A program made the translations under genes and the position numbers. The notes beneath the pieces are model-generated. The model was not told where the DNA came from. It saw nothing but the letters and a program-made list of their open reading frames with translations, and ran no database searches. From an uncultured Spirochaetota bacterium (GTDB taxonomy: Bacteria > Spirochaetota > Brevinematia > Brevinematales > JAOACQ01), in contig CAWIGG010000002.1 in the NCBI GenBank assembly GCA_963835575.1, positions 198,141 through 262,140 on the forward strand: a DNA stretch of 64,000 nt. Direction: 5' to 3'. Below are positions 275 through 60,635 of this stretch, piece after piece (positions within the stretch are counted from its first letter, which is position 1; each line of letters starts with the position of its first letter).

Positions 275-597
275 GCGGATATGCTGTGAATTATACAGTC
301 AATAATGACTGGGGTGCGGGCGCTACATGCACGGTGACCATAAAGAACAATTCCGCTACAGCCCTCAGTAGCTGGTCTCTTGTCTGGACTTTTGCAGGCA
401 ACCAGGCTATAACCCAGATATGGAGCGCCAGTCAGACTACCAGCGGTGAAACAGTGACAGCCGTGAATTTAAGCTACAACGGTACGATCGGCGCGAATGG
501 CGGAACGCAGAGCTTCGGCTTCAATTTGAGCTACAGCGGGTCCAATGCAAAACCGACTTCGTTCACTCTGAACGGAACGGCATGTACAACATATTAA
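1..597 (+). CDS. 3' part of a secreted carbohydrate-active enzyme gene (5' end outside window): Ser-rich linker + CBM2-like module
   Basis: Frame 1 is open from nt 1 (SSVASSVAVSSSRSSVASS...). Ends GGYAVNYTVNNDWGAGATCTVTIKNN...FTLNGTACTTY*, the cassette shared by 17 downstream genes. DNA closely similar to 28680-29156. Confidence 0.85.
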   Translation, partial: SSVASSVAVSSSRSSVASSTAVSSSLAASSVASSVAVSSSRSSVASSVAVSSSRSSVASSAAVSSSRAASSVAASSVASSVAVSSAASSTAGGYAVNYTVNNDWGAGATCTVTIKNNSATALSSWSLVWTFAGNQAITQIWSASQTTSGETVTAVNLSYNGTIGANGGTQSFGFNLSYSGSNAKPTSFTLNGTACTTY

Positions 598-17874: not shown

Positions 17875-19845
17875 GTGAAAAATTCAAAATTCGCTTTGCT
17901 TTCAGGATTGATGCTATTGGTACTTCCATTATGTTTGACATGCAGCCTGAATATGTCAGGTAACAATGACAAAGGCGCCATTTCTGAAACAAGCGTGAAA
18001 AAAGCGACCACAGGTTTCTCCATCAGCGGCAGGAATCTGATTGACGCCAATGGCAATCAGTTCATTTTAAGAGGTATTGCCCATGCGCATGTCTGGTATG
18101 AGAGCCAGATTACCAATGCTTTGAGCGGCATCAAAAGCGTGGGTGCCAACTGCGTCAGGATTGTCCTGGGCTGCGGAGTCCAGTGGGGCCCGAATACAGC
18201 CGCCGATGTGTCCAATGTGATCGCATTATGCAAGGCAAACAGGCTGATCGGAATACTCGAAGTGCATGATACCACCGGTTACGGGGATGCCTCAGCGGCA
18301 TGCAGCCTGGCCACGGCGGTGACATACTGGCAGTCGATCAAGAGCGTCCTGGACGGACAGGAAAAATACATCATTATCAATATCGGGAATGAGCCGTACG
18401 GCAACAACAATGTCGCCAACTGGGTCGCTGATACGGAGAACGCTATTAAATCGATGAGAAGCGCCGGGTTCCAGCATACGCTGATGGTAGATGCTCCAAA
18501 TTGGGGGCAGGATTACTCTTTTATGATGCTGACCAATGCCACAGCGGTGTTTAATTCCGATGTGAACAAGAATACGATTCTCTCGGTACATATGTATGAA
18601 GTTTATCAAACCATCACACCCATTACAAATTATATAACTCAATTTATGGCCTTGAATCTTCCCCTTGTGATCGGCGAGTTTGGATGTTCAAATAACGGGC
18701 AATATGTGGATGCGGCCGATGTCATGGCGACAGCACAGTCGCAGGGAATCGGCTACATGGCCTGGTCCTGGTGTGGGAACAGCTCCCCAGTTCTGGATAT
18801 GGTCGTTAATTGGGATGCCAGCCAGTTGACGAGCTGGGGAAATATGGCGATTAACGGTGCCAACGGCATTAAAGCCACTGCTAAAGAATGCACGGTATTC
18901 AGCGGTGTATCATCCAGTTCGGTTTCCAGTATTTCGTCCGCCGTGAGCTCCAGCCGCTCGAGTGTCGCATCTTCAGTGGCTGTGAGTTCGAGCCTGTCCA
19001 GTATTGCTTCTTCAGTTGCTGTCAGCTCCAGCCAGGCGAGCAGTATAGCCAGTTCCGCTTCATCCTCAGTCCAGTATCAGAATATTACTCTTCCGTTCAG
19101 CTTTGACGGCGCGGGAGAATTATACTGGCAGACAAGCGGTACGATCACCAGCATGAATTCCTGGAATCTTGATGCGCTGGATGTGAATGGGACAAGCTTT
19201 AAAAATGTGTATGTCGCCGGAAGCAGCCTGCCCGCGAAACAGAATGGATACTACTACATTCACTATAAGGGGTCATATTCCTATAGTCATGTTGAAATTG
19301 CCGGCACATCAGGATCGGTGAGCAGCAGTTCGATAGCTGTCAGTTCCAGCCCGGCAAGCAGTGTCGCTTCTTCAATAGCGGCAAGCTCCAGCCGTGCAGC
19401 CTCTTCAATAGCAGCTAGCTCTAGCAGATCGAGTATTGCATCTTCAGTAGCAGTCAGCTCAAGCCTGGCCGCATCCAGTGTCGCTTCCAGTGCGGCATCG
19501 AGCACGGCTTCCAGCACAAGCGGCGGGTATGCAGTGAATTATACCGTCAATAATGACTGGGGCGCGGGCGCCACAGTCACGGTAACCATAAAGAACAATT
19601 CCGCAACGGCCCTTTCGAGCTGGTCTCTTGTCTGGACATTTGCGGGCAATCAGCAGATCACTCAGATCTGGAGCGCCACGCAGACAACCAGCGGCGCGAC
19701 CGTTACTGCGAATAGTTTAACTTATAACGGCGCGATCGGCGCGAACGGCGGGACGCAGAGTTTCGGCTTCAATTTGAACTACAGCGGCTCGAACGCCAAA
19801 CCGACGTCGTTTACTCTAAACGGGACGGCATGTACGCTCTATTAG
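17875..19845 (+). CDS. GH5 (subfamily-8-like) beta-mannanase - linker - X module - linker - CBM2-like; lipoprotein
   Basis: GTG start 5 nt after AAGGAGG, 48 nt after the previous stop (operonic). Signal ending LTC|S. FILRGIAHAHVWY, GANCVRIVL, ILEVHDTTG, INIGNEPYG, MVDAPNWGQD, VIGEFG. Confidence 0.8.
   Translation: MKNSKFALLSGLMLLVLPLCLTCSLNMSGNNDKGAISETSVKKATTGFSISGRNLIDANGNQFILRGIAHAHVWYESQITNALSGIKSVGANCVRIVLGCGVQWGPNTAADVSNVIALCKANRLIGILEVHDTTGYGDASAACSLATAVTYWQSIKSVLDGQEKYIIINIGNEPYGNNNVANWVADTENAIKSMRSAGFQHTLMVDAPNWGQDYSFMMLTNATAVFNSDVNKNTILSVHMYEVYQTITPITNYITQFMALNLPLVIGEFGCSNNGQYVDAADVMATAQSQGIGYMAWSWCGNSSPVLDMVVNWDASQLTSWGNMAINGANGIKATAKECTVFSGVSSSSVSSISSAVSSSRSSVASSVAVSSSLSSIASSVAVSSSQASSIASSASSSVQYQNITLPFSFDGAGELYWQTSGTITSMNSWNLDALDVNGTSFKNVYVAGSSLPAKQNGYYYIHYKGSYSYSHVEIAGTSGSVSSSSIAVSSSPASSVASSIAASSSRAASSIAASSSRSSIASSVAVSSSLAASSVASSAASSTASSTSGGYAVNYTVNNDWGAGATVTVTIKNNSATALSSWSLVWTFAGNQQITQIWSATQTTSGATVTANSLTYNGAIGANGGTQSFGFNLNYSGSNAKPTSFTLNGTACTLY
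18907..19068 (+). repeat. Ser-rich linker-coding repeat (linker 1)
   Basis: SSSSVSSISSAVSSSRSSVASSVAVSSSLSS... Confidence 0.75.
19069..19305 (+). other. Unassigned ~80-aa X module (putative carbohydrate-binding)
   Basis: VQYQNITLPFSFDGAGELYWQTSGTITSMNSWNLDALDVNGTSFKNVYVAGSSLPAKQNGYYYIHYKGSYSYSHVEIAG, bracketed by two linkers. Recurs at 34548 and 36720. Confidence 0.6.
19306..19521 (+). repeat. Ser-rich linker-coding repeat (linker 2)
   Basis: TSGSVSSSSIAVSSSPASSVASSIAASSSRAASS... Confidence 0.8.
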
Positions 19846-27263: not shown

Positions 27264-29156
27264 ATGAACATGAGACAAAAATCACAATTATCAAAAAGTA
27301 TTATCCTGATTTTTCTGGCTTTAATAATGGGCTCCTGTACGGTTTTATCACCGGACCACGTTAATAGCGGCAGTCAGATAAATAATAATACTGAGAGAGC
27401 AACGGACATGAATAGTTTTGTCAAGACTTCCGGAACGCAGTTTGTCGTCAGCGGGAAAACTTTTTATTTTAACGGGGCCAACCAGTATTATCTGTTCTAC
27501 AAATCCCATGCCATGGTTACCGAGGTTATCACCGATGCCGCCGCTCTGGGACTTACCGTTATCAGGACCTGGGGTTTCTGCGACGGAGCGCCAAAGGACA
27601 ACAACTTCGGCTTCCAGCAGAGCGCCGGGGTTTATGATGAGGCGACATTCAAACAGATGGATTTTACGATCAATACCTGCAAACAATACGGCATCCGTCT
27701 GGTTATCCCGCTGGTCAATAACTGGGACGATATGGGCGGTATGGACCAGTATGTCATATGGGCAGGAGCTTCAGCTCATGACGATTTTTACACAAACGTG
27801 CAGTGCCGGACCCTTTATAAGAGCTATGTCAATTATTTTTTGAACAGGACGAATTCTATAACGGGAGTCGTGTATAAAAACGATCCCACCATCATGATGT
27901 GGGAACTGGCCAATGAGCCCCGCTGCGACAGCGACATGACCGGCATGAAGCTGAGCAACTGGATCAATGAAATGGCCGGTTATATCAAGAGCATCGATCA
28001 GAACCATCTGGTTTCGATCGGTTCAGAAGGATTTTTCAAGGGGGTCGGATACGGCTATCTTTATGACGGCTCTTCGGGATGTGATTTTGTCGGCCATAAC
28101 AGGATCCAGTATATTGACGCGTGTTCCGCTCATCTTTATCCATCCAGCTGGGGCATTTCCACGAACGATGCCGTCAACTGGATCATTATGGGGGCGACGA
28201 ACGCTCATGTCACAGTAGGCAAGCCGTATTATCTGGGTGAATTCGGTTATCCGGATCATACCGCGCGCAATCAGATTTATCAGGACTGGTACAATACGCT
28301 TTATGCTTACAACGCGGACGGGGCCATGTTCTGGCTTCTGAGCGGCCATCAGGATGACGGTTCCCTCTATCCGGACTATGACGGTTTTACCGTCTATTAT
28401 CCCCAGGACACAAATACATGCGCCGTTATATCGGCATACTCCGTCAAGGCAAACGCCGAAACCGGGCAAACCCCGGCTTCCGCGGCCAGCAGTACTGCTG
28501 TATCTTCTGTCAGTTCGAGCCGGTCTTCCAGCAGTGCGAGCAGCGCAGTTTCCTCGTCAGTCATTTCCAGCCGCTCGAGCTCGAGCGCGGCAATTTCATC
28601 GGCAGTCAGTTCGAGCCGGTCGAGCGTTGCATCCTCAATTGCCGTAAGTTCGAGCCATTCCAGTGCAGCTTCTTCTGCGGCTGTGAGTTCGAGCAGATCG
28701 AGCGTAGCATCTTCAGTTGCGGTAAGCTCCAGCCGGTCGAGCGTAGCTTCTTCAGCAGCAGTCAGCTCAAGCCTTGCCGCATCCAGTGTTGCAGCTTCTA
28801 GCGTGGCTTCCAGCACAGCAGTTTCATCAGGCAGCGGATATGCAGTTAATTACACCGTCAACAATGACTGGGGTGCGGGCGCAACATGCACAGTGACGAT
28901 TAAGAACAATAGCGCGACAGCCCTCAGCAGCTGGTCTCTTGTCTGGACTTTTGCAGGCAACCAGGCTATAACCCAGATATGGAGCGCCAGTCAGACTACC
29001 AGCGGTGAAACAGTGACTGCCGTGAATTTAAGCTACAACGGTACGATCGGCGCGAGCGGCGGGACTCAGAGCTTTGGCTTCAATCTGAGCTACAGCGGAT
29101 CCAATGCAAAACCGGCTTCGTTCACTTTGAATGGGTCGGCGTGCACGCTTTATTAA
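27264..29156 (+). CDS. GH5 (subfamily-7-like) beta-mannanase lipoprotein - Ser linker - CBM2-like
   Basis: ATG 27264 after GGGAGAAAAG. Signal ending IMGSC|T. FVKTSGTQFVVSGKTFYFNGANQYY, VIRTWGF, WELANEPRC, YYLGEFGYPD. Confidence 0.85.
   Translation: MNMRQKSQLSKSIILIFLALIMGSCTVLSPDHVNSGSQINNNTERATDMNSFVKTSGTQFVVSGKTFYFNGANQYYLFYKSHAMVTEVITDAAALGLTVIRTWGFCDGAPKDNNFGFQQSAGVYDEATFKQMDFTINTCKQYGIRLVIPLVNNWDDMGGMDQYVIWAGASAHDDFYTNVQCRTLYKSYVNYFLNRTNSITGVVYKNDPTIMMWELANEPRCDSDMTGMKLSNWINEMAGYIKSIDQNHLVSIGSEGFFKGVGYGYLYDGSSGCDFVGHNRIQYIDACSAHLYPSSWGISTNDAVNWIIMGATNAHVTVGKPYYLGEFGYPDHTARNQIYQDWYNTLYAYNADGAMFWLLSGHQDDGSLYPDYDGFTVYYPQDTNTCAVISAYSVKANAETGQTPASAASSTAVSSVSSSRSSSSASSAVSSSVISSRSSSSAAISSAVSSSRSSVASSIAVSSSHSSAASSAAVSSSRSSVASSVAVSSSRSSVASSAAVSSSLAASSVAASSVASSTAVSSGSGYAVNYTVNNDWGAGATCTVTIKNNSATALSSWSLVWTFAGNQAITQIWSASQTTSGETVTAVNLSYNGTIGASGGTQSFGFNLSYSGSNAKPASFTLNGSACTLY
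28476..28829 (+). repeat. Ser-rich linker-coding degenerate tandem repeat
   Basis: ASAASSTAVSSVSSSRSSSSASS... Confidence 0.8.
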
Positions 29157-29319
29157 GGGCAGTTCTAAAAACTCACATTTTTAGAACTGCCGACCTTGTT
29201 TTAGATCATGCGGCCGCTGAGTTCGCGCGGCGAACTCCACGCGGCAGCGATAGTTACAAAAACAAGGAATTTATTTTATAGGGGGCAGTTCCAAAAACTT
29301 AAGGTTTTTGGAACTGCCC
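29157..29319. mobile_element. MITE-like 163-bp insertion with terminal inverted repeats and TTAA target duplication
   Basis: TIRs GGGCAGTTCTAAAAAC / GTTTTTGGAACTGCCC. TTAA at 29153-29156 and 29320-29323. The paralogous empty site tatTTAAgtgaaatt is at 591-604. Confidence 0.7.
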
Positions 29320-29330
29320 TTAAGTGAAAT

Positions 29331-29356
29331 TTCCGGAAATATTTCCGGTTTTTTAT
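29331..29356 (+). terminator. Rho-independent terminator (displaced from its gene by the MITE)
   Basis: CCGGAAAT/ATTTCCGG palindrome followed by TTTTTT. Confidence 0.6.
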
Positions 29357-29503
29357 GATGGGATAGAAGAATATTTATAATGAGAAAAAGTTAATAATAG
29401 ATAAGTCATTCAGCCCTGTCCGGGCCGGTGCCGCATCCCCCCCCGACCGCGGTATTCGGTTCCGGACCGGGCGAAAATGACGGATAAAAAATGGAGGAAC
29501 ATT

Positions 29504-31288
29504 ATGTCAGGGAAAAAATCAGGAAAACTTTTCTGTCTGTTTTTAGCAGGCGTGTTTTTTGTTCTTCAATATGCAGGCTGTTCTTTACAGTTACCGCAGG
29601 ATTCCGGAACGCAGAGTCTGATGGTTAATCAGCCCAGAGCGACCGTCAGCAGTGTCGGACGTCTGACAGGCATCAACTGGTTCGGCTTTGAGACCAGCGC
29701 TTACTGCCCGCATGGACTGTATATCAGGGATTATAAATCCATGCTGAAACAAATCAAGGATCTGGGATTCAACTGTATCCGCCTGCCGTGGTGCAACGAT
29801 ATGCTGACTCAGACCACCCCTCCCTCGTCCATTCAAATCAACACAAATGAAAGAACGGATGCCTATACCGGCCTGCATAACCTGAATGCCGATCTCGCCG
29901 GTTTGTCCCCTATACAGGTCATGGACAAGGTAATTGATGAAGCTACCAGAGTCGACGGTCTTAAGATCATTCTGGACTGCCATTCGCATACTGTTGACAA
30001 CTATAATAATGAACCTTTATGGTACACATCATCCTGTTCAGAAAGTAAAGCGATTTCCGATTGGGTCTTACTTATTAACCGTTATAAGAATAACCCCTAT
30101 GTCTGCGGAGCAGACCTCAAAAACGAACCCCATGGCAATATGGGCTCATCCGGTATGAAGCCTCCCGCCACCTGGGGTTATGACGAGCCCGGTCAGGGAA
30201 CAACAGACTGGAAAGCGGCCGCTGAAAGGATCGGTACCGCCATCCTTAACGCCAATCCCAATATGATCATCATCGTGGAAGGCGTGGAATGCTATTACAA
30301 TTATCCGACCGACACAGTCACCAATTTCTTCTGGTGGGGCGGCGAATTATCAGGCGTTGCCGACCATCCTATCACCGCTATTCCTTCCGCTCAGCTAATG
30401 TATTCGGCGCATGAATATGGTCCTCATGTGTATAACCAGCCCTGGTTTCAGGATTCGACTTTCCCGAATAATATGCCGGCCATCTGGGACAAGCACTATT
30501 ATTTCATCAAGAAGAATGGAATCGGCTCTCTCTTCTTTGGTGAATTCGGTATTATGGAATCTGAAGTTGACGCCGGCGGCGTGGCAGCCACATGGTATAA
30601 GAACTTTATGGCTTATATCGGAACCGCCAACAGCTGGACATTCTGGTGCATCAATCCCGACTCAGGAGACACCGGCGGTATATTACAGAGCGACTGGGTT
30701 ACGGTAGAAACGGGTAAATATAATATATTAAAGCCTTATCTGGCCGCTCAATTCTCTCCTCTCGGCGGCGGATCAAGTTCATCTTCCTCCTCTGTCGCGG
30801 CGAGTTCGAGCCTGGCCGCATCCAGCGTTGCGTCTTCGGTAACAGTCAGCTCCAGCCGTTCGAGCGCCGCTTCATCTATAGCTGTCAGCTCGAGCCGGGC
30901 CGCATCCAGTGTGGCTTCCAGTGTTGCGGTTTCCAGTATAGCTTCCAGCACAGCCGCTTCATCAGGCGGTTACGCTGTTAATTACACAGTCAATAATGAC
31001 TGGGGCGCAGGAGCTACGTGCACAGTAACAGTTAAGAATAACAGTGCGGCGGCTCTTTCCAGCTGGTCTCTTGTCTGGACATTCGCGGGCAATCAGCAGA
31101 TTACGCAGATCTGGAGCGCTTCTCAAACGACCAGCGGCGAAACGGTAACAGCCGTCAATCTCAGTTACAACGGTGCGATAGGAGCGAACGGCGGGACACA
31201 GAGCTTCGGCTTTAATCTGAGCTACAGCGGTTCCAACGCCAAACCCGCGGCTTTTACTCTGAATGGGACAGCTTGTACAACTTATTGA
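29504..31288 (+). CDS. GH5 cellulase-type lipoprotein - Ser linker - CBM2-like
   Basis: ATG 29504 after TGGAGG. Signal ending YAGC|S. GINWFGFETSAYCPHGLYIRDYKSMLKQIKDLGFNCIRLPW, DLKNEPHG, FFGEFG. Confidence 0.85.
   Translation: MSGKKSGKLFCLFLAGVFFVLQYAGCSLQLPQDSGTQSLMVNQPRATVSSVGRLTGINWFGFETSAYCPHGLYIRDYKSMLKQIKDLGFNCIRLPWCNDMLTQTTPPSSIQINTNERTDAYTGLHNLNADLAGLSPIQVMDKVIDEATRVDGLKIILDCHSHTVDNYNNEPLWYTSSCSESKAISDWVLLINRYKNNPYVCGADLKNEPHGNMGSSGMKPPATWGYDEPGQGTTDWKAAAERIGTAILNANPNMIIIVEGVECYYNYPTDTVTNFFWWGGELSGVADHPITAIPSAQLMYSAHEYGPHVYNQPWFQDSTFPNNMPAIWDKHYYFIKKNGIGSLFFGEFGIMESEVDAGGVAATWYKNFMAYIGTANSWTFWCINPDSGDTGGILQSDWVTVETGKYNILKPYLAAQFSPLGGGSSSSSSSVAASSSLAASSVASSVTVSSSRSSAASSIAVSSSRAASSVASSVAVSSIASSTAASSGGYAVNYTVNNDWGAGATCTVTVKNNSAAALSSWSLVWTFAGNQQITQIWSASQTTSGETVTAVNLSYNGAIGANGGTQSFGFNLSYSGSNAKPAAFTLNGTACTTY
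30773..30964 (+). repeat. Ser-rich linker-coding degenerate tandem repeat
   Basis: SSSSSSSVAASSSLAASSVASSVTVSSSRSS... Confidence 0.8.
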
Positions 31289-35570: not shown

Positions 35571-37496
35571 ATGAATCACTTGAAGGTTAAAGCGATTTTA
35601 CTGTTCGGAAGCATACTGTGCTTTTTATGGTCATGCTCCGTAAACCCTATGAGTGAGAAAGGCCAGTCATTGTCTTTCACTGGGGTGAAAGCGACGGCGA
35701 ACGGAAAGTTTTTGGGAAATATCTGGGGAGGCAATACCGAACCTCTGAACTTCAGCAAGTATTGGAACCAGGTGACGCCTGAAAACGCAGGAAAATGGGG
35801 ATCAGTGGAATTGTCCCAGGGCACTTACAACTGGAGTGATCTGGATGCGCAGTACAGTTATGCCAAATCCAAAGGCTTCCCGTTTAAGTTTCATAATCTG
35901 GTATGGGGAAGCCAGCAGCCGAGCTGGATCAGTTCATTATCTGCCACAAACCAGGTGCTGGCTGTAATTGATTGGATCTCGAATGTCGGCGCAAGATACT
36001 CAAACCTTGATTTTATCGACGTGGTCAACGAACCGATTAAAACCGGCCAGCCTCCCTATGGGGCGGCCATCGGCGGCAGCGGTTCGACGGGATGGGACTG
36101 GGTCATTTTTGCATTTACGGTGGCACGGAAATATTGCGGCAATGCAAAACTGCTTGTTAATGAATACAGTGTGGAAAATGATACCTCTGCAGCAGCGCAA
36201 TACACCAATATTATCAATTTGCTGAAAAGCCGTAATCTGATAGATGGAGTGGGGATCCAGGGCCATTATTTCAGTTTGGACAGTGATGATACCGGTACTT
36301 TATCAAACTGTCTGTCAATTATATTGTCCACAGGCCTTCCGATTTACATTTCTGAGCTTGACCTTGACGGAGATGATGCGACTCAGCTTTCCAGATACCA
36401 AAAATATTTTCCGATCCTCTGGAATTACTCAACGATTAAAGGCGTCACACTCTGGGGATACATCCAGGGTTCAATCTGGACAACAAACGCTTATCTCTTA
36501 ACCACTTCCGGGACGGAACGCCCGGCATTGACCTGGCTGATGCAGTATGTCGGCAATACTACCTCGACCAGTTCCAGCAGCCCGGTTGCGTCTTCCAGCA
36601 GCGCGGCTTCGTCCGTACCTGTAAGCTCCAGCCGGTCGTCCGCGGCGAGCAGTATTGCTTCTTCAGTTGCTGTCAGCTCCAGCCAGGCGAGCAGTATAGC
36701 CAGTTCCGCTTCATCCTCAGTCCAGTATCAGAATATTACTCTTCCGTTCAGCTTTGACGGCACGGGAGAATTATACTGGCAGACAAGCGGTACGATCACC
36801 AGCATGAATTCCTGGAATCTTGATGCGCTGGATGTGAATGGGACAAGCTTTAAAAATGTGTATGTCGCCGGAAGCAGCCTGCCCGCGAAACAGAATGGAT
36901 ACTACTACATTCACTATAAGGGGTCATATTCCTATAGTCATGTTGAAATTGCCGGCACATCAGGATCGGTGAGCAGCAGTTCGATAGCTGTCAGTTCCAG
37001 CCCGGCAAGCAGTGTCGCCTCTTCAATAGCGGCAAGCTCCAGCCGTGCAGCCTCTTCAATAGCAGCTAGCTCTAGCAGATCGAGTATTGCATCTTCAGTA
37101 GCAGTCAGCTCAAGCCTGGCCGCATCCAGTGTCGCTTCCAGTGCGGCATCGAGCACGGCTTCCAGCACAAGCGGCGGGTATGCAGTGAATTATACCGTCA
37201 ATAATGACTGGGGCGCGGGCGCCACAGTCACGGTAACCATAAAGAACAATTCCGCAACGGCCCTTTCGAGCTGGTCTCTTGTCTGGACATTTGCGGGCAA
37301 TCAGCAGATCACTCAGATCTGGAGCGCCACGCAGACAACCAGCGGCGCGACCGTTACTGTGAATAGTTTAACTTATAACGGCGCGATCGGCGCGAACGGC
37401 GGAACGCAGAGTTTCGGCTTCAATCTGAGCTACAGCGGCTCGAACGCCAAGCCGGCAGCATTTACTTTGAATGGGACGGCATGCTCGACTTATTGA
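35571..37496 (+). CDS. GH10 endo-xylanase lipoprotein - linker - X module - linker - CBM2-like
   Basis: AGGAGG RBS. Signal ending LWSC|S. YWNQVTPENAGKWGSVE, FKFHNLVWGSQQPSWI, IDVVNEP, LVNEYSVE, GVGIQGHYF, IYISELDL. Confidence 0.9.
   Translation: MNHLKVKAILLFGSILCFLWSCSVNPMSEKGQSLSFTGVKATANGKFLGNIWGGNTEPLNFSKYWNQVTPENAGKWGSVELSQGTYNWSDLDAQYSYAKSKGFPFKFHNLVWGSQQPSWISSLSATNQVLAVIDWISNVGARYSNLDFIDVVNEPIKTGQPPYGAAIGGSGSTGWDWVIFAFTVARKYCGNAKLLVNEYSVENDTSAAAQYTNIINLLKSRNLIDGVGIQGHYFSLDSDDTGTLSNCLSIILSTGLPIYISELDLDGDDATQLSRYQKYFPILWNYSTIKGVTLWGYIQGSIWTTNAYLLTTSGTERPALTWLMQYVGNTTSTSSSSPVASSSSAASSVPVSSSRSSAASSIASSVAVSSSQASSIASSASSSVQYQNITLPFSFDGTGELYWQTSGTITSMNSWNLDALDVNGTSFKNVYVAGSSLPAKQNGYYYIHYKGSYSYSHVEIAGTSGSVSSSSIAVSSSPASSVASSIAASSSRAASSIAASSSRSSIASSVAVSSSLAASSVASSAASSTASSTSGGYAVNYTVNNDWGAGATVTVTIKNNSATALSSWSLVWTFAGNQQITQIWSATQTTSGATVTVNSLTYNGAIGANGGTQSFGFNLSYSGSNAKPAAFTLNGTACSTY
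36561..36719 (+). repeat. Ser-rich linker-coding repeat (linker 1)
   Basis: TSTSSSSPVASSSSAASSVPVSSSRSS... Confidence 0.75.
36720..36956 (+). other. Unassigned X module (third copy)
   Basis: DNA identical to 19069-19305 apart from one mismatch I could find (GAG -> GTG in the peptide). Confidence 0.6.
36957..37172 (+). repeat. Ser-rich linker-coding repeat (linker 2)
   Basis: Same sequence as 19306-19521 (offset 17651). Confidence 0.8.
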
Positions 37497-45950: not shown

Positions 45951-47729
45951 TCAGAAAGGCCATTCTGGGAGCCATTTCAGTAATTGAACATAGTCTCTGC
46001 CGGCCGGCATTCCGGAAATGACCGGATAAAAGATGATAAAAAGGGCCGCCGCGGCCGCCAGCCAGCCGTAAATCAAAAACCGGGTCCATGTTTTCTTTTC
46101 CGTAATATGACGCATTATATAAACGGCGCAGAGGACCATAAAAGGAACGGCCGCGTAGAAATGATAAATCCAGGTCAGTCTCTGCACAAGAATCCACGGG
46201 AGATACTGGGCAAAAAAGCCCGTCAGGATGAAGAAAGCCTTTTTGTCCCTTGTTTTAATACCGGCGATAAGGCATGCTATGACAGCCAGAATGCCCGGCC
46301 ACCAGACCGCTGGATTTCCCATGGCGGCTATGGTGGAGACGGTGACGGCCGGAAAATATTCATGGCCGCTGTAGTACCAGACGGGTTTCAGCATCAGCGG
46401 CCATGTCCACCATTTTGAAGCGTAGGGATGTGTTGCATTGAGGCTGGTATGATAGCGGAGCATGTTCAGCTGGTTGCCCAGGATCTGGTCCAATCCCGGG
46501 CCGCGCGCGAAAGGCGTGGGCAGGTAGGAAAGAACATATACTGACGCGGGAATGACGATGAATGACAGCGCGGCAATCCCGGCCAGCTTGAGGATTTGCC
46601 CGGGATAGCGCCTGACGGAAGCCTTGAGCGTTTCCGCATCTCCGTCCGGAATATTTTTCCCCGCATTGATTTTCCGGGCCGCGCAGGAACGGTATTCCTG
46701 AAAACTCCTGAAGACGGCCGCAAAGAAAATAACGGCAAGTCCCGCGCCGGCGTAAAAAGAAATCCACTTGACCGATATGCCGAGTCCGAAAAAAAGTCCG
46801 CTGAGGAGGAGCGGACAGGCCGCTTTTTTAAGGCCGTTTTTAAAAAGGTCCCCGCTGTAAAAACAGTACATGAAATAATACATCAGAATGATAAAAAAGA
46901 CGGCAAATGTGTCGACAGTCCCTATCCGGGATTCTGTAAAATGGAGAAAATCGGCCGCGAACAGTATCAGCGCGAAAAACGCGTATTTCCGGCTGTTGAA
47001 TAATCCGCGGGCGAGCAAGTAAAGAATGATGAGCATGCCGATCCCGAAGAGGGCGCCCATCACGCGCCAGCCGAAGGGGCCCATGCCGGAAAGAAATATT
47101 CCGCCTGCGATGATCAGTTTGCCGAGGGGCGGATGCGTCCACTCAAAAGGCTCCATTCCATGAAGATATTCGTACGCCGTCCGGGCCGTGTAAATTTCGT
47201 CAAAATACATACTATTATAGAAGGAAGGAGTAAAAGGAACGGCCGCCTGTTCGTCAAAAAGGTTGGCCGGAGAACCTTCGCTTAACGGGCTGATTTTTAC
47301 CGGGATGATATTTTTTACTCTTAAAAGGCGGTACATATTATTTTCTTCTCCCCAGATGCCGGCCTCGTAAAGAGTGGAACCGGGAATTTCCACTGTCAGC
47401 CGGATAAAAGCGGCGCTGAAATCATATTCCGTCCTTTTCCAGGCAAAAAGAGAGGGGATGAGGGCCCGGTCTTTCATCCAGTTTGTGCCGTCCTGTGAAT
47501 ATTCCAGATCGTATCGCCCTTCGCCGCTTATACCGCCGAAACAGGAAATATATTTTACGTCTTGTTTTCCGCCCAGGTCAATAATAAAGCTTTCACTTTG
47601 TGCGGCCGGCTTCCAGCCGGTGCGGGGGCTTTTCGGGCTTCCGAGATTAAGGAAGGCGATAAAGCTGTACACGCATAATAACAGGCAGAGGAATATCAGC
47701 TCCTTGTTTGTAAAGGGAAGTCTGGTCAT
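45951..47729 (-). CDS. GT-C fold, GT39/PMT-like polyprenyl-phosphate-sugar:protein O-glycosyl(mannosyl)transferase with discoidin-like insert
   Basis: YFDEIYTARTAYEYLHGMEPFEWTHPPLGKLIIAGG (loop-1 DE motif). Many TM helices. C-terminal WIYHFYAAVPF. Insert GWKPAAQSESFIIDLGGKQDVKYISCFG..YDLEYSQDGTNW after TM1. ATGA overlap with the upstream gene. Confidence 0.8.
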   Translation of the reverse strand: MTRLPFTNKELIFLCLLLCVYSFIAFLNLGSPKSPRTGWKPAAQSESFIIDLGGKQDVKYISCFGGISGEGRYDLEYSQDGTNWMKDRALIPSLFAWKRTEYDFSAAFIRLTVEIPGSTLYEAGIWGEENNMYRLLRVKNIIPVKISPLSEGSPANLFDEQAAVPFTPSFYNSMYFDEIYTARTAYEYLHGMEPFEWTHPPLGKLIIAGGIFLSGMGPFGWRVMGALFGIGMLIILYLLARGLFNSRKYAFFALILFAADFLHFTESRIGTVDTFAVFFIILMYYFMYCFYSGDLFKNGLKKAACPLLLSGLFFGLGISVKWISFYAGAGLAVIFFAAVFRSFQEYRSCAARKINAGKNIPDGDAETLKASVRRYPGQILKLAGIAALSFIVIPASVYVLSYLPTPFARGPGLDQILGNQLNMLRYHTSLNATHPYASKWWTWPLMLKPVWYYSGHEYFPAVTVSTIAAMGNPAVWWPGILAVIACLIAGIKTRDKKAFFILTGFFAQYLPWILVQRLTWIYHFYAAVPFMVLCAVYIMRHITEKKTWTRFLIYGWLAAAAALFIIFYPVISGMPAGRDYVQLLKWLPEWPF

Positions 47730-49303
47730 TGTTTCATCCTTATCTCATTATTCTCTGGAATTCCCGCTTCCGATGAAATAAACAGGAGAGGGTTTCTGTT
47801 TTTAATAAACAGGTCATAGCCGGTTTTTACAAGCCATGCAAGGGCCGTCAGATGGAGAAATGAAATGATAAAAAAGAACTGGTCGAACCGGGGAACATAG
47901 AATGAGTTCATCAGGCTGAACTGAAAGACATACCCTGTATTGAGAAAATGCAGCAGGCTTAAGAACCCGGTGATCAGAAAAATCCTTTTGTCTTTTGTGA
48001 AAATGAAAGCAATCAATCCCAGGGCGATGGCCGGGTAGAGGTACCGTTCATGCATCCTGGAACTTAAAATAAAAACCGCCGTGATAATAAATAAAGCCGT
48101 ATAAGAATAAAATTCCCGTCCTTTATTTTTCAGGAAGACAAACACGGCCCATCCCAGTACGGCAAATATAAATACAAATCCCCAGATGGAATAGGGCAGG
48201 AAAAGAAATGTTTCCGAATCAGGCATCCCGTTGCCTCCGGAAAGGGAGAATAAATTGGCAGCGTTCAGGCTCGCGTAGGGATAGAGGGCAAGGGAGTCCG
48301 TGTATTTTTTGAAAATCCAGAACGGACCCTGTATGACGGAAAAGGGAATGATGCCGAGGATGAAAACGAGAATGCCGGCCCCCGCGCCGGCCAGGAACGT
48401 CCGCAAGCCTCCTTTTCTAATGAAGGCAAAAATAAGGAGCGGGGCGAAGATCAGCGCCTGCGGTTTGATAAGAAGGGCGGCGGCGAAAAAGCAGCACGCT
48501 TGAACGGCCTTTTTTTCAATCAGAAGTATCAGCGTCAGCAGGATGAAGAGGGTGAATACGGAATCGATCTGGCCCCAGACCGCGGAATTCAGGATAATAG
48601 CGGGATTAAAAAGAAAGAGAGCGCTCAGAACAAAAGCCTGCCGGCCGCCTCCGTTTTTTTCCGCATGGCGGAAGATGAAAAAAGCGGTCAGGAGGTCGGC
48701 TATGATTGCCGGCAGTTTAAGAATAATAATATAAAGCCGGGAATCCTGAGGAAGCATAAAGATTTTTCTGATGGCGCCTATGATGTATAAAAAATAGATA
48801 TATCCGGGGGGATAGTCCGCGAAAATTCCTATATAGAAGCCCGGTAGTCCCCTGTCGGCGGCCTGGATCGCCCATGCGGAGAAATTATGTATGTCGACGG
48901 GATGCCCTTTAAAGGAAACGGCGAGGATGACGCGGAGGATGAGGCCGGCGGCGAAAAGGATGGAAAGGCCCCGGAAATTTATTTCTTTATTCGCAGTGCC
49001 GTCAAAAGATTTTTTCTGTAATAAAAAATAGCCTGCCGCCAGAAGCGCGGCGTAGGCAAGGGTAATAATCAGGAGGACCGGGATCGAGACGGGGTTTCCA
49101 GGTTGGGTGTCAGTCACCATCGGGGCCGCCATGTTTGCCAGCTTCATAAAGAAAGGCTGAACAGGTGTGAATTTTAGGACAGCCTGTCCATCTTCGACCC
49201 GGATGCCGGGTAAATGGGAAATTGTGTTTTCCACCGGGAAAAGACGGCCGCAAAAAGAGAGCGCAATAATAATGAATAAGAGTTTAACGAGCCTTTTATT
49301 CAT
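47726..49303 (-). CDS. GT-C fold membrane glycosyltransferase (DUF2029 / Gpi18-like mannosyltransferase family)
   Basis: Polytopic membrane protein. VDIHNFSAWAIQAADRGLPGFYIGIFADYPPGYIYFLY. Translationally coupled to the PMT-like gene. Confidence 0.65.
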   Translation of the reverse strand: MNKRLVKLLFIIIALSFCGRLFPVENTISHLPGIRVEDGQAVLKFTPVQPFFMKLANMAAPMVTDTQPGNPVSIPVLLIITLAYAALLAAGYFLLQKKSFDGTANKEINFRGLSILFAAGLILRVILAVSFKGHPVDIHNFSAWAIQAADRGLPGFYIGIFADYPPGYIYFLYIIGAIRKIFMLPQDSRLYIIILKLPAIIADLLTAFFIFRHAEKNGGGRQAFVLSALFLFNPAIILNSAVWGQIDSVFTLFILLTLILLIEKKAVQACCFFAAALLIKPQALIFAPLLIFAFIRKGGLRTFLAGAGAGILVFILGIIPFSVIQGPFWIFKKYTDSLALYPYASLNAANLFSLSGGNGMPDSETFLFLPYSIWGFVFIFAVLGWAVFVFLKNKGREFYSYTALFIITAVFILSSRMHERYLYPAIALGLIAFIFTKDKRIFLITGFLSLLHFLNTGYVFQFSLMNSFYVPRFDQFFFIISFLHLTALAWLVKTGYDLFIKNRNPLLFISSEAGIPENNEIRMKQ

Positions 49304-51291: not shown

Positions 51292-54200
51292 ATGAGAAAA
51301 CAAGAGGGGCTTTTAATAGTTGAAGAGAAAGTAGATGATTTCAACAGAAACGAAAGTACTTACCTTTCAAAAAACTTTCAGGAAACGGAAGCGAGGACCC
51401 GGTTCATTGACCCGCTTTTTACAGCTCTCGGCTGGGAACTGGAACAAACCGGCCTGAACCGTCAATGCTGGGATGTTTACCGTGAATTCTCGCAGAGGGA
51501 CGATTCATCCACTAAAAAGCCCGATTATGCTTTCAGGATCAAAGAAAAAGGCGCGCCCCATAATAAATATAAAGAAAAATTCTTTGTCGAGGCGAAAGCC
51601 CCATGGGTCCCTCTTACAGACGCAAAGCCCGTCTTTCAGGCCAAAAGATACGCCTTTTCATCTCATGGCAAAGCCCCCATCGTCATTCTCACCGACTTTC
51701 AGGAATTCCGGGTTTTCAACGGCCTGGAAAGACCGCGTTTCGAAAATCCTCTGCAGGGATTGATTAAAGAGCTGGATTTAAAATATACCGATTATTCAGT
51801 TAAATGGGATTTACTCTGGGCCAACTTTTCAAAAGAAGCCGTTTATGACGGAAGCATAGATATCCTTGCGGGAAAAGTTTCCAGGAGTACAAAAACATTG
51901 GACGATGAATTTCTGAATGATATTATCGAATGGAGAGAAACGCTCGCACGGAATGTCGCCATCCGGAATAATAACCTGTCCGTCGATGAAATCAATGAAG
52001 CCGTTCAAAGAATTCTTGACCGTTTTGTCTTTATCAGAAACCTTGAGGACAGAAACATTGAAGACGAGAACCTTCTTATAAATCTTGTGGACCGTCAGGA
52101 CGGCGGGGACGCGCATTTTTATAAATGTATCGTCCCGGTATTCCGTAAATTCGATATTGATTATAACGGCCTTCTTTTTAAAAAACATTTCAGCGAAGAC
52201 CTGGAAATTGATAATAAGGTCATTAAAGATATCATTAAAAGCATGAGTTCGCAGGTCTCACCTTTCCGGTTTGATATCATAGAGCCTGAAATATTGGGGC
52301 GGATTTATGAAAGATTTCTCGGCTCCAAAATCCGGCTGACGGAAGACCACCATGCGAAGGTCGAGGAAAAACCGGAAGTGCGCCATGCCGGGGGCGTTTA
52401 TTACACGCCGGAATATATCGTCAAATACATCGTTGAAAACACCGTGGGAGCGTTATTAAAAGGTGAAACCGCCGCCACAGACAGGAATGTCTGTGGTACC
52501 ACCGGCATTCCTGCCGGTGGAGGTATGCCCCCCGAAGAAATCGAGAAAATTAAAATACTCGACCTCGCCTGCGGTTCGGGAAGTTTCCTGCTTGGGGCTT
52601 TCGGCTACCTGATAAAATACCATCAGGATTATTACTCCGGTCTTTCCAAAACCGCCCGGAAGAAATACAAAGACGATTTTTTTGAAACCCCGGACGGAGA
52701 AATCCGCCTGACCCTGCGGAAGAAAGGCAAAATCCTGAAAAACAATATTTTCGGCGTGGACATCGACAGGGAGGCCACGGAAGTGGCAATTATGAGCCTT
52801 TATTTAAAACTGCTGGACGAGGGTTTTGACAAAGGGCAGGCTTTACTATTTATGAAGGGCCATATTCTGCCGGATATGACGGCGAATGTGAAGTGCGGGA
52901 ATAGTTTGATTGGCACGGATTACTTTGAAGGAATGCTAAAGATAAACGATGAGGAATTTAAGAAGATCAATCCTTTCGATTGGGAGAAAGAGTTTTCTGA
53001 AATACTAAAAAAAGGCGGCTTCGATTGTGTGATTGGGAACCCGCCGTATATTCGTATTCAAGAGCTTAAGGAATATCAACCTGAAACCATTCCCTACTTA
53101 AAATCAAAATACTATTCTGCTTTATCTGGAAATATTGACATTTATGTAATTTTCGTGGAAAAAGGGCTAAGTTTATTAGATAAAAATGGTAAACTTGGAT
53201 TTATTCTTCCAAGTAAATTTTTTGCCACTGATTATGGAACAGCATTACGAAAAATTATTTCAGAAAAAAAGGCTTTGAATAAAATAATTGATTTTGGACA
53301 TTCACAAGTATTTGAAAATGCAACTACTTATACCTGTTTATTATTCCTATCAAATGAACCGGTTAATAAAATGAATTATACCAAAGTTATTAATACATCT
53401 GAGATGCTCAAAGATGAAACAATGTCAATATTAATAGAGAATGATAAACTTACTGATTCTCCATGGATATTTGCTACAAATACAGAAAATCTAATAGCTG
53501 AGAAATTATTAAATAATTGTGTGCCGTTGAGTATGATATCAAGAATTGGGCGTGGCTCTAGTTCAGGAAATGATGATGTTTTTATGCTAAAAATTAAAAA
53601 CGGTTCTTTCTTTACACGGCAAGACGAAAGTATTAATATTGAAAAAGAAATTCTACGCGTACCTATTTATGCAACTGATTTCAATCGTTTTAGTTTTGCA
53701 CCAGATTCTGGAGAACTAATTATTTTTCCTTATAAAGTCAATAATAATGATTATGAATTGATTTCTGAAAATGAAATAAAAAACAATTTCCCTAAAGCAT
53801 ATAAATATCTTTATACACATAAAAAGGAATTGGAGGCACGCAAACAATTTAAAACATGGTATAGTTTTAGTGCTCCAAGAAATTTAGAAGTTCATGAAAA
53901 AGCGCATATTCTTGTACCACTTTTAGCGGATCGTGGTTTGTTTTGTCGGCTTCCACTGGAATCCAATAATTATTGTTTAATGGCTAGTGGAGGATTTAGT
54001 ATAACAATAAATAGCGAGTGTGGATTATCTCCAAATTACATACTAGGTTTATTAAATTCACGCGTATTATTTTGGCGTCTTCGTTCAATTAGCAATATAT
54101 TTCGAGGTGGATGGATTACTTGTACAAAACAATATGTCGAAACATTACCAATATATAAAATCAATTTTTCTGTTGAAAGAGATAAATTTCATTATGACAG

Positions 54201-54384
54201 TATGGTATCCTTTGTAGATCAAATGCTTTCCGTTCAAAAAGACCTGCAAAAATCTAATACCGATCAGGGGAAAGCCCTTTTAAACCGGCAGATTGAAATG
54301 CTCAACAGCCAGATTGATAAACTGGTATATGAGCTGTATGGATTGACGGACGAGGAGATAAAAGTGGTGGAGGGGAAGGAATGA
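51292..54384 (+). CDS. Type IIG restriction-modification enzyme (N-terminal PD-(D/E)xK nuclease + gamma-class N6-adenine methyltransferase + TaqI-C-like specificity region)
   Basis: KKPDYAF...FFVEAKAPW. Motif I ILDLACGSGSFLLGAF. Motif IV VIGNPPYIR (53038-53049). 1030 aa single chain. Tail LYGLTDEEIKVVEGKE. Confidence 0.85.
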   Translation: MRKQEGLLIVEEKVDDFNRNESTYLSKNFQETEARTRFIDPLFTALGWELEQTGLNRQCWDVYREFSQRDDSSTKKPDYAFRIKEKGAPHNKYKEKFFVEAKAPWVPLTDAKPVFQAKRYAFSSHGKAPIVILTDFQEFRVFNGLERPRFENPLQGLIKELDLKYTDYSVKWDLLWANFSKEAVYDGSIDILAGKVSRSTKTLDDEFLNDIIEWRETLARNVAIRNNNLSVDEINEAVQRILDRFVFIRNLEDRNIEDENLLINLVDRQDGGDAHFYKCIVPVFRKFDIDYNGLLFKKHFSEDLEIDNKVIKDIIKSMSSQVSPFRFDIIEPEILGRIYERFLGSKIRLTEDHHAKVEEKPEVRHAGGVYYTPEYIVKYIVENTVGALLKGETAATDRNVCGTTGIPAGGGMPPEEIEKIKILDLACGSGSFLLGAFGYLIKYHQDYYSGLSKTARKKYKDDFFETPDGEIRLTLRKKGKILKNNIFGVDIDREATEVAIMSLYLKLLDEGFDKGQALLFMKGHILPDMTANVKCGNSLIGTDYFEGMLKINDEEFKKINPFDWEKEFSEILKKGGFDCVIGNPPYIRIQELKEYQPETIPYLKSKYYSALSGNIDIYVIFVEKGLSLLDKNGKLGFILPSKFFATDYGTALRKIISEKKALNKIIDFGHSQVFENATTYTCLLFLSNEPVNKMNYTKVINTSEMLKDETMSILIENDKLTDSPWIFATNTENLIAEKLLNNCVPLSMISRIGRGSSSGNDDVFMLKIKNGSFFTRQDESINIEKEILRVPIYATDFNRFSFAPDSGELIIFPYKVNNNDYELISENEIKNNFPKAYKYLYTHKKELEARKQFKTWYSFSAPRNLEVHEKAHILVPLLADRGLFCRLPLESNNYCLMASGGFSITINSECGLSPNYILGLLNSRVLFWRLRSISNIFRGGWITCTKQYVETLPIYKINFSVERDKFHYDSMVSFVDQMLSVQKDLQKSNTDQGKALLNRQIEMLNSQIDKLVYELYGLTDEEIKVVEGKE

Positions 54385-54446
54385 CTAACTACAGATAAAT
54401 AGATGCACATGGATAGAAAACGGCCCGAATCTGTGTTTATCCGCGC

Positions 54447-54457
54447 TTAATTAACCC
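54447..54457 (+). repeat. Direct repeat TTAATTAACCC (left copy)
   Basis: An identical 11-mer recurs at 57734-57744. The two copies bracket the ATPase + membrane-protein genes. Confidence 0.6.
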
Positions 54458-54481
54458 ATACGTGGGCAGGGAGGATGAATA

Positions 54482-59597: not shown

Positions 59598-60635
59598 ATG
59601 AGAAAAAAGAAGAATCAAATGGTACCCGACAATACCTATACCGAGTTTTTGCTTTATACCACGCCGAACGGCAAGGTAAAAGTAGAGATATTTCTGCATG
59701 ATGAAAACATCTGGCTTACACAGGATAAAATCGCGCTTTTATTCGGGGTGCAAAGGCCTGCAATTACTAAGCATTTAAAAAATATTTTCGAAAGCAAAGA
59801 ACTTATTGAAAAATCAGTTAGTTCCATTTTGGAACATACTGCCGGAGACGGCAAAACTTATAAAACAAAATTTTACAATCTCGACGCCATTATTTCCGTG
59901 GGCTATCGTGTTAATTCCGCGCAGGCGACTCATTTTCGTATCTGGGCGACCGAACGGCTGAAAGAGTATATCATCAAAGGTTTTACCATGGATGACGAGC
60001 GGCTTAAAAATCCGCAAAATATCTTCGGGCAGGATTATTTTGAGGAACAATTAGCCCGCATTCGGGATATTCGATCGAGCGAACGCCGTTTTTATCAAAA
60101 AATTACCGATATCTATGCAGAGTGTAGCGCCGATTATGACAGTGAGAGCGAAGAAACCAAAGTCTTTTTCGCGACCGTGCAGAATAAATTACATTGGGCT
60201 ATCAGCAGGCAGACTGCCGCCGAAATAATTTATTCCCGTGCCGATAGTCAAAGACAGAATATGGGGCTGACCAACTGGAAAAACGCTCCCGATGGACAAA
60301 TACGAAAAACAGATGCGGGTATTGCTAAAAATTATTTAAATGAAAAAGAGCTGGACCGGCTTAATCGCGTTGTTTCGATGTATCTGGATTATGCCGAATT
60401 GCAGGCAAATAATCGTAAAATAATGAACATGAAAGATTGGATCGCTAAATTAGACGCTTTCTTACAATTCAATGAAAAAGAGATTTTAACCAATCCCGGG
60501 AAAGTAACCGCTGAAATTGCCAAAGTTTTCGCCGAAAATGAACATGAAAAGTATCGTGTCATTCAAGACAAATTGCTGGAGTCTGATTTTGATAAAGCAA
60601 TAAAGCGGCTTGAGGGTAGGAATAAATCTCATTAG
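59598..60635 (+). CDS. RhuM-family protein (virulence/defence-island associated)
   Basis: FLLYTTPNGKVKVEIFLHDENIWLTQDKIALLFGVQRPAITKHLKNIFESKEL...VGYRVNSAQATHFRIWATERLKEYIIKGF. Confidence 0.75.
   Translation: MRKKKNQMVPDNTYTEFLLYTTPNGKVKVEIFLHDENIWLTQDKIALLFGVQRPAITKHLKNIFESKELIEKSVSSILEHTAGDGKTYKTKFYNLDAIISVGYRVNSAQATHFRIWATERLKEYIIKGFTMDDERLKNPQNIFGQDYFEEQLARIRDIRSSERRFYQKITDIYAECSADYDSESEETKVFFATVQNKLHWAISRQTAAEIIYSRADSQRQNMGLTNWKNAPDGQIRKTDAGIAKNYLNEKELDRLNRVVSMYLDYAELQANNRKIMNMKDWIAKLDAFLQFNEKEILTNPGKVTAEIAKVFAENEHEKYRVIQDKLLESDFDKAIKRLEGRNKSH

Follow-up and report, generated by a model that had tools for sequence, protein, structure and literature searches.

Miniature inverted-repeat transposable elements, or MITEs, of the IS5 family are already known, and those of Methanosarcina, partnered with the insertion sequences (IS) ISMba19, ISMma12 and ISMac15, are non-coding elements of 140-252 bp with inverted repeats (IRs) of 15-17 nt (Kamoun et al. 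2013, PMC3852290). Correia/NEMIS, RUP, BOX/SPRITE, ERIC and bcr1 are likewise small elements with terminal inverted repeats (TIRs), found at the 3' ends of genes or between genes and forming stable RNA hairpins, and they can serve as terminators, processing sites or mRNA stabilisers (PMC10969869). Here we describe a 163-bp element at positions 29157-29319 of a 64-kb stretch of DNA (64,000 nt, analysed as a whole and called the window below; contig CAWIGG010000002.1) from an uncultured Spirochaetota bacterium; it lies directly behind the stop codon of a mannanase gene and is very probably, on the evidence of its termini, an IS5-family MITE of the clade modelled as NCBIfam NF033581. Its transposase family and its target differ from those of the Correia-to-bcr1 group, in which the duplicated target is TA for Correia and RUP and the insertion site is TTTAT for bcr1. 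The Methanosarcina elements differ from it in their archaeal hosts, in their sequences and in their direct repeats (DRs) of 0-3 bp, and terminal hairpins are unreported for them (PMC3852290). Eukaryotic piggyBac-type elements duplicate TTAA at insertion, as the window element does, but their ends are of the form CCC...GGG against the GGG...CCC of IS5-type ends, the relatives of the window element duplicate many other 4-mers, and the transposase associated with ends of the window type is, unlike piggyBac, of the IS5 family.

The insertion and its target site

The filled site reads ...ctttatTTAA/GGGCAGTTCTAAAAAC...GTTTTTGGAACTGCCC/TTAAgtgaaatttccgg (slashes mark the boundaries of the insert), so that the sequence, the length of 163 bp and the TTAA on both sides are as the original prediction described them. 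The left TIR, GGGCAGTTCTAAAAAC, occupies 29157-29172 on the plus strand, and the right TIR, which reads GGGCAGTTCCAAAAAC on the minus strand, occupies 29304-29319; repeat finding paired them over 16 nt with the one mismatch that had been predicted (15/16 identical, or 19/20 when the TTAA is counted too). The left copy of the target-site duplication (TSD), TTAA, occupies 29153-29156 on the plus strand and ends in the TAA stop codon of the mannanase gene (29154-29156), in agreement with the overlap claimed earlier; the right copy, placed by reading of the sequence and by alignment of the flanks, lies at 29320-29323 on the same strand. Because the duplicated TTAA restores the stop codon, the protein sequence of the mannanase is unaltered. 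An unoccupied TTAA stands at 594-597 (plus strand), where it overlaps the stop codon of a paralogous gene that also ends in a CBM2 module; this empty site reads catatTTAAgtgaaattcccgg, with a single TTAA and no insert. The prediction was right about that absence but gave the site as 591-610, one position off, the string that it quoted beginning at 592. Pairwise alignment of 380-780 with 28930-29510 gave about 90% identity on either side, over about 220 nt upstream and about 150 nt downstream, which bears out the supposed homology of the flanks, and the sole large gap was exactly 163 bp plus one TTAA. The coding capacity of the element is limited to overlapping chance open reading frames (ORFs) of 46 and 39 aa. 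Short and non-coding, with 16-nt TIRs, a TSD and a matching empty site, it shows these generic features of a MITE, and the predicted insertion of a non-autonomous transposable element is supported and can now be placed in a family by its termini and its 4-bp TSD.

The mannanase gene is one of 18 tandem glycoside-hydrolase genes in the window, all of which terminate TGY-NNN-NNN-TAY-stop. Eight of these 18 paralogous gene ends read TAT-TAA and therefore each present the same TTAA target, and the element is found at one of the eight, that of the gene ending at 29156; we take the first paralog as the true empty site because it alone shares the downstream intergenic sequence too. The polarity could in principle be reversed, the MITE predating the duplication of the paralogs and later disappearing from the copy at 594-597, whether through gene conversion or because it was excised precisely. 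Such a history is compatible with the two paralogs taken alone, and some DDE elements, for example piggyBac at TTAA, do excise precisely; against it, the 17 other paralogous gene ends are without the element (seven of them TAT-TAA too), hardly a mutation is seen in the TSD, TIRs and hairpins against a difference of about 10% between the paralogous flanks, and no IS5-type excision is known that restores its target precisely. Loss at 594-597 is accordingly given little credence here, and we favour insertion at 29157. The insertion would be recent only in relative terms, with an intact TSD and perfect hairpins between flanks that have diverged by about 10% from their paralogs.

The element has the layout hairpin, core hairpin, hairpin, because at each end a second, inverted copy of the TIR adjoins the first. 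The left terminal hairpin (29158-29191, plus strand) pairs the TIR with the adjoining inverted copy through 14-bp arms (29158-29171 and 29178-29191, 14/14 paired) around a 6-nt loop, with a predicted RNA folding energy of -19.7 kcal/mol, and GACCTTGTTTT follows directly. The right terminal hairpin (29283-29319, plus strand) has perfect 16-bp arms (29283-29298 and 29304-29319, 16/16 paired), a 5-nt loop, TTAAG, and an RNA folding energy of -27.0 kcal/mol. Perfect hairpins at both ends and a GC-rich structured core had been foreseen, and folding indeed places a third, GC-rich stem-loop of 74 nt at 29194-29267 (plus strand), which contains GAGTTCGCgcgGCGAACTC. The minimum free energy of the whole element is -84.3 kcal/mol as RNA (z = -11.4) and -54.6 kcal/mol as DNA (z = -11.8). 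With its TIR doubled in this way, each end is, to judge from its sequence, a minimal "TIR-spacer-TIR" unit of 36-37 bp. No Rfam family reached its gathering threshold, and the sub-threshold scores (mir-3167, 26.5 against 86; SNORA32, 24.7 against 60; sRNA162, 23.9 against 78) are generic hairpin matches.

Shared termini and the IS5 family

An exact scan of species-representative genomes for the 16-mer terminus, GGGCAGTTCYAAAAAC, returned at least 112 loci, many of them chance matches but a large subset not, and 27 chance matches of the 16-mer in viral contigs served as a control for the flanks. The four nucleotides 5' of the 16-mer were TTAA in 10 of the 114 matches listed and in none of the 27 controls, and consisted of A and T only in 34/114 against 1/27. 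The 16-mer is present in several copies in single metagenome-assembled genomes (MAGs), with flanks that diverge directly outside GGGC; examples among the matches listed are an alphaproteobacterium with at least eight copies, a rumen Clostridia MAG with four and several Spirochaetota. At least 22 complete short elements are bounded by GGGCAGTTCYAAAAAC, with a second, inverted copy 71-447 bp away, and they are distributed over Spirochaetota, Brevinematales, Alphaproteobacteria, rumen Clostridia and Bacteroidota. Perfect 4-bp duplications flank 12 of them (TTAA twice, and TAAA, TTTA, GGTA, GTTT, TATA, ATAA, TACA, TTAT, GCAA and ATAT), and this variety speaks for a DDE cut-and-paste element. These findings establish a widespread superfamily of MITEs whose 4-bp target duplication is a true one. 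Its families share with the window element the identical 16-mer terminus, the 4-bp TSD and a length of 71-447 bp; their interiors are unrelated to that of the window element and to one another. Most of these relatives are without full terminal hairpins. One relative, on the metagenome contig ERZ773009 (L121), has the same hairpin-core-hairpin layout and a similar subterminal junction, CTGCC(C)GAC..GTTTT.AGAT, and it is the only occurrence of the exact hairpin pattern in the metagenome collection; viral contigs held none. A literature search on the end sequence returned only a chicken primer, so the GGGCAGTTCYAAAAAC-ended families appear to be unnamed in the literature searched, and a literature query for IS701 returned nothing.

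Of the candidate ORFs beside solitary TIRs, none encodes a transposase; they include a Der GTPase in one case (L035) and, outside the MITE, a serine recombinase in another (L001). The 16-mer also occurs in two conserved cyanobacterial contexts with identical upstream flanks, in Oscillatoriales and other cyanobacteria (L016, L021, L065, L071) and in Nostoc (L005, L047, L054, L058, L073, L075, L084). In one of the former (L021), a TnpB-like ORF lies about 390 nt downstream of the 16-mer, beside unrelated conserved cyanobacterial sequence. Probably these cyanobacterial loci are orthologs or repeats that have no connection with the MITE.

The link to a transposase came from two of the MITE families, one alphaproteobacterial and one from Clostridia, in which the end opposite GGGCAGTTCYAAAAAC is GGGCACCTCTAAAAAC. 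A scan of viral contigs for GGGCACCTCTAAAAAC identified a 1296-bp element (L217, 6626-7921; IMGVR_UViG_2648501912_000001) with the ends GGGCACCTCTAAAAAC and GGGAACCTCTAAAAAC and a CTCT/CTCT duplication, the single ORF of which encodes an IS5-family transposase (273 bits on NF033581, for which the cutoff is 140). The enzyme has relatives at 38 loci in viral contigs and on plasmids, where all are annotated as IS5 family: pWW0 (a copy that we take to be IS1246), Diaphorobacter, Sphingobium, Agrobacterium, Lactococcus and Bacteroides fragilis IS1169. The autonomous elements of this clade have 16-nt ends of the form GG[GA][CAG][AG][CG][CT]TC[TG]A[AT]AAA[CT], and 13 distinct copies are flanked by identical 4-bp sequences, three copies by TTAA, two by TTAT and one each by TTTA, TCCC, AGAT, AGGT, AGAG, CGTA, AATT and TCAC, the TSD thus having the same length as that of the window element. 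A log-odds matrix built from 46 such 16-nt ends, with 200,000 random 16-mers for comparison, gave 22.9 bits for the left and 19.4 bits for the right end of the window element; the training set ranged from 11.1 to 26.0 bits, the best of the random 16-mers reached 12.8 bits, and the end of E. coli IS5 scored 3.1 bits. Every base of both window ends had already been observed at its position in the matrix, and the fit of the two ends therefore argues strongly for an IS5-family MITE of the NF033581 clade. Individual ends come close: GGGCATCTCTAAAAAC-TCA (L239) agrees with the window end at 14/16 positions and has a TTAA TSD, GGAGGGTTCTAAAAAC (L252) has its 3' 11-mer in common with the window end, and the IS1169-type end, GAGGAGTTCTATAAAT, agrees at 12/16. 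The suggested search for a transposase with matching TIRs has thus led to NF033581 transposases of the IS5 family bounded by fitting ends, the best of them at 14/16.

Set beside the IS5 elements of the NF033581 type (the pWW0 copy, IS1169, the Lactococcus copies and the L217 element), the window element has ends that fit their TIR consensus throughout and, like them, a 4-bp duplication, which in the IS elements is frequently TTAA, TTAT or TTTA. It differs in that it is 163 bp long and has no transposase gene, against 1.15-1.33 kb with one ORF, in that its end, GGGCAG+TTC, was not seen on an autonomous copy, and in that its ends are full TIR-loop-TIR hairpins.

The same duplications bear on two other ways of reading the insert. 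Parsed as TA/AGGGCAG...CTGCCCT/TA, it would be an IS630/Tc1-type MITE with a TA duplication, and the data of the window alone fit this parse (empty tatTAagtg giving tatTA[AGGGC...GCCCT]TAagtg). The parse is ruled out by relatives with the same terminus, the 4-bp duplications of which vary and either contain no TA or are not centred on it (GGTA, GTTT, GCAA, TACA, TCCC, AGGT), and the autonomous elements with such ends encode transposases of the IS5 and not the IS630 family, so that we attach next to no probability to it. The hairpins at both ends would also suit a single-strand (HUH/Y1) mechanism, with either a palindrome-associated element of the IS200/IS605 type or a cluster of REP-like hairpins beside a fixed tetranucleotide and no true duplication, in which case the flanking TTAAs could be target plus cleavage site. 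These hairpins, however, are not subterminal, since each starts no more than one nucleotide from its end of the element; from nucleotide 1 on, one end is the inverted repeat of the other, and no Rfam family matched. Neither a Y1 transposase nor a TnpB domain, nor any other transposase domain, was found in a Pfam scan of the window that covered one ORF of 132 aa and 29 of the 31 ORFs that reach 200 aa or more; the two other ORFs lie antisense within scanned ones, and for three products in the scan Pfam gave no match at all. Since the 4-bp duplications of the relatives vary, a fixed-target mechanism of the IS200/IS605 kind is ruled out, and a single-strand origin is scarcely conceivable.

Several results weigh against placing the window element in the IS5 family. 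It is present in one copy within the window, no IS5-family element with exact GGGCAGTTCYAAAAAC at both ends was recovered, and the best autonomous matches to GGGCAGTTCYAAAAAC reach only 14/16 (GGGCATCTCTAAAAAC, GGGCACCTCTAAAAAC) or share only the 3' 11-mer (GGAGGGTTCTAAAAAC). The central core is unique to the window element and beyond the TIRs resembles no fetched locus, IS or MITE, so that an origin by internal deletion would be conjectural. This missing similarity is compatible with membership of the IS5 family, because the parent IS was itself not recovered. Elsewhere in the window the 16-mer terminus does not recur, two matches with three mismatches, both in coding sequence, being due to chance. 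A BLASTN search of plasmids with 171 bp found no match, and a 31-nt TIR probe found in plasmids just chance or orthologous intergenic matches (Bacillus, cyanobacterial plasmids).

A competing assignment was to the IS1182 family, a sister of IS5 in which the ends are likewise 16 nt long and close with AAAAC, and the duplications measure 4 bp. In its favour stood an 1826-bp element of a Spirochaetota MAG (L014/L072) with GGGCAGTTCYAAAAAC at both ends and an IS1182 transposase (NF033551, 350 bits), as well as hairpin termini like those of the window element on Bacteroidota IS1182 copies. The IS1182-family element ISPse1 has 16/16 IRs and a 4-bp DR (PMC3281130), and MITEs of 160 and 169 bp in Methanosarcina, the 160-bp one with a 4-bp DR, have the IS1182-family ISMac2 as a putative partner (PMC3852290). 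The 1826-bp stretch, however, proved to be a MITE into which a 1691-bp IS1182 element, bounded by CAGACTGTGTGAAAAC ends of its own, is nested; the outer 95 and 40 nt of the stretch are colinear with intact MITE copies of 132 and 156 bp in the same MAGs. About 30 plasmid and viral IS1182 copies all have ends of the form [CG]AG[GA]C[TC]GTGT.AAAAC, which share 8-10 of 16 bases with the window ends, and the matrix that gives the window ends 19-23 bits assigns -13.4 bits to the canonical IS1182 end. Among some 70 IS1182 loci fetched, none had a transposase directly bounded by GGGCAGTTCYAAAAAC-type ends, and the ends read in about 38 of them (plasmids and viral contigs) all differ from GGGCAGTTCYAAAAAC. 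Because IS1182 had inserted into a MITE, and this nested copy was the sole supporting element, the assignment was rejected, and we regard an IS1182 origin as very improbable beside the IS5 assignment.

In the nested case (L014 7461-8000 plus L072 1-1286, MAG CAWAOD010000016), the host MITE is roughly 135 bp long and of the IS5 type. A recurring GGGCAGAT[GA]CAAAAGT in some IS1182-like loci was dismissed as an element end, lying as it does inside the coding region. In Bacteroidota, IS1182-family elements (L120, 372-403 and its other end; L193; L206) have TIR-loop-inverted-TIR hairpins at both termini, with folding energies of -15 to -21 kcal/mol; we know of no description of such termini, and their likeness to those of the window element is an architectural analogy only.

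The mannanase transcript and the cellulase array

The route by which the element would have reached its present place can be sketched from the DDE cut-and-paste reactions that are well established for IS5-family elements. A transposase gene in another part of the genome would supply the enzyme that binds the two outer 16-nt ends, the element would be excised or copied and integrated through a 4-bp staggered cut in the TTAA that overlaps the mannanase stop codon, and gap repair would yield the TTAA duplication and with it the restored TAA. Three strong hairpins now stand between the stop codon and the native intrinsic terminator of the gene (CCGGAAATATTTCCGG+T6; 29333-29354, plus strand), which still folds independently downstream of the insert, and the mannanase transcript has to pass all three before it arrives at that terminator. 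The predicted separation of gene and terminator is therefore correct, and the distance from the stop codon is 177 nt now against about 10 nt before, a shift of 167 nt. Compared with its counterpart at 609-632, the terminator of the occupied site retains T6; the paralogous hairpin is CCGGAAATGTTTCCGG and is without a T-tract, because TCTCATTAGG comes directly after it.

Within the element, the left hairpin together with the GACCUUGUUUU behind it is accepted by a simple terminator scan, a U-tract is lacking at the right hairpin, and no promoter-like site points towards the downstream gene. The hairpins may pause or terminate transcription, or may protect the 3' end of the mRNA; such effects on termination or mRNA stability are plausible because they are analogous to those of Correia, RUP, SPRITE and ERIC elements (PMC10969869). 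The most economical reading is that of a selfish, nearly neutral insertion. A more elaborate view, which we think unlikely though worth stating, is that the GGGCAGTTCYAAAAAC-ended MITEs form an undescribed pan-phylum superfamily of which the window copy would be a rare sub-lineage with complete 36-37-bp "TIR-loop-TIR" ends, a composite of two nano-MITEs around a 90-bp structured core, possibly retained as a terminator or stabiliser in the 3' untranslated region within the 18-gene cellulase array.

The gene that received the insert at its 3' end (27264-29156, plus strand) encodes a GH5 mannanase in which a Ser-rich linker precedes a C-terminal CBM2, and the insertion left the coding part of the gene unchanged. 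The ORF has 643 codons, 630 from the likely start at 27264, and ends TAT-TAA at 29151-29156; the product carries a lipoprotein-like signal peptide, is 100% identical to one protein only, encoded on a 2.05-Mb NCBI/ENA contig, and has its next homolog at 59% identity. Another protein encoded in the window was found solely on a 4.4-kb Logan contig, ERR10755942. The array (window positions 1-45211) comprises 18 glycoside-hydrolase (GH) genes in tandem on the same strand, each with a Ser-rich linker followed by a C-terminal CBM2; the families represented are GH9 (four), GH5 (five), GH116, GH12, GH10 (two) and GH8, with others that have CBM6, CBM64 or CBM3. The Ser-rich linkers are encoded by DNA repeats with a period of 39 nt. 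A long GC-rich hairpin upstream of the next gene is conserved in both paralogous intergenic regions (29406-29480 and 676-745; -39 kcal/mol, z = -4.2); the 20-mer GACCGCGGTATTCGGTTCCG is identical in the two, and Rfam holds no match to the hairpin. A 300-nt direct repeat with 100% identity (18999-19298 and 36650-36949) lies in the CBM64-coding regions of two GH genes, with a third copy, 74% identical, at 34475, and the identical pair looks like recent gene conversion inside the array.

Directly after the array, minus-strand genes for GT39 (a PMT-type protein O-mannosyltransferase) and GT87 occupy 45951-49303; the closest named homologs of the GT39 protein are from Bacillota (about 45% identity), and the adjacency suggests glycosylation of the Ser-rich linkers. 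Farther on, 51292-57103 and 59598-60635 encode a restriction-modification enzyme of the fused Eco57I/MmeI type, an AbiEii-like ATPase of the SMC/AAA kind and a member of the RhuM family, which have the look of a defence or mobile island beyond the cellulase array.

Implications for the element family and its host

The window element is a new member of the already known IS5-family MITEs, with an uncommon hairpin-ended layout, and there is no sign in the evidence of a new mechanism. It illustrates cleanly how the TTAA duplication of a MITE can keep a stop codon, and it could serve as a strain marker. The matrix of 16-nt ends, combined with the 4-bp duplication, provides a signature for finding further members of the MITE superfamily, and the nested IS1182 copy is a caution that an IS lying inside a MITE can yield a false family assignment. 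Should the hairpins change how the 3' end of the mannanase mRNA is formed, this would be another case of MITE-borne RNA structure affecting expression, a known theme and no new principle. For the source organism, the element marks a transposition event within a highly repetitive array of cellulase and hemicellulase genes, and it indicates present or recent activity of an IS5-type transposase there.

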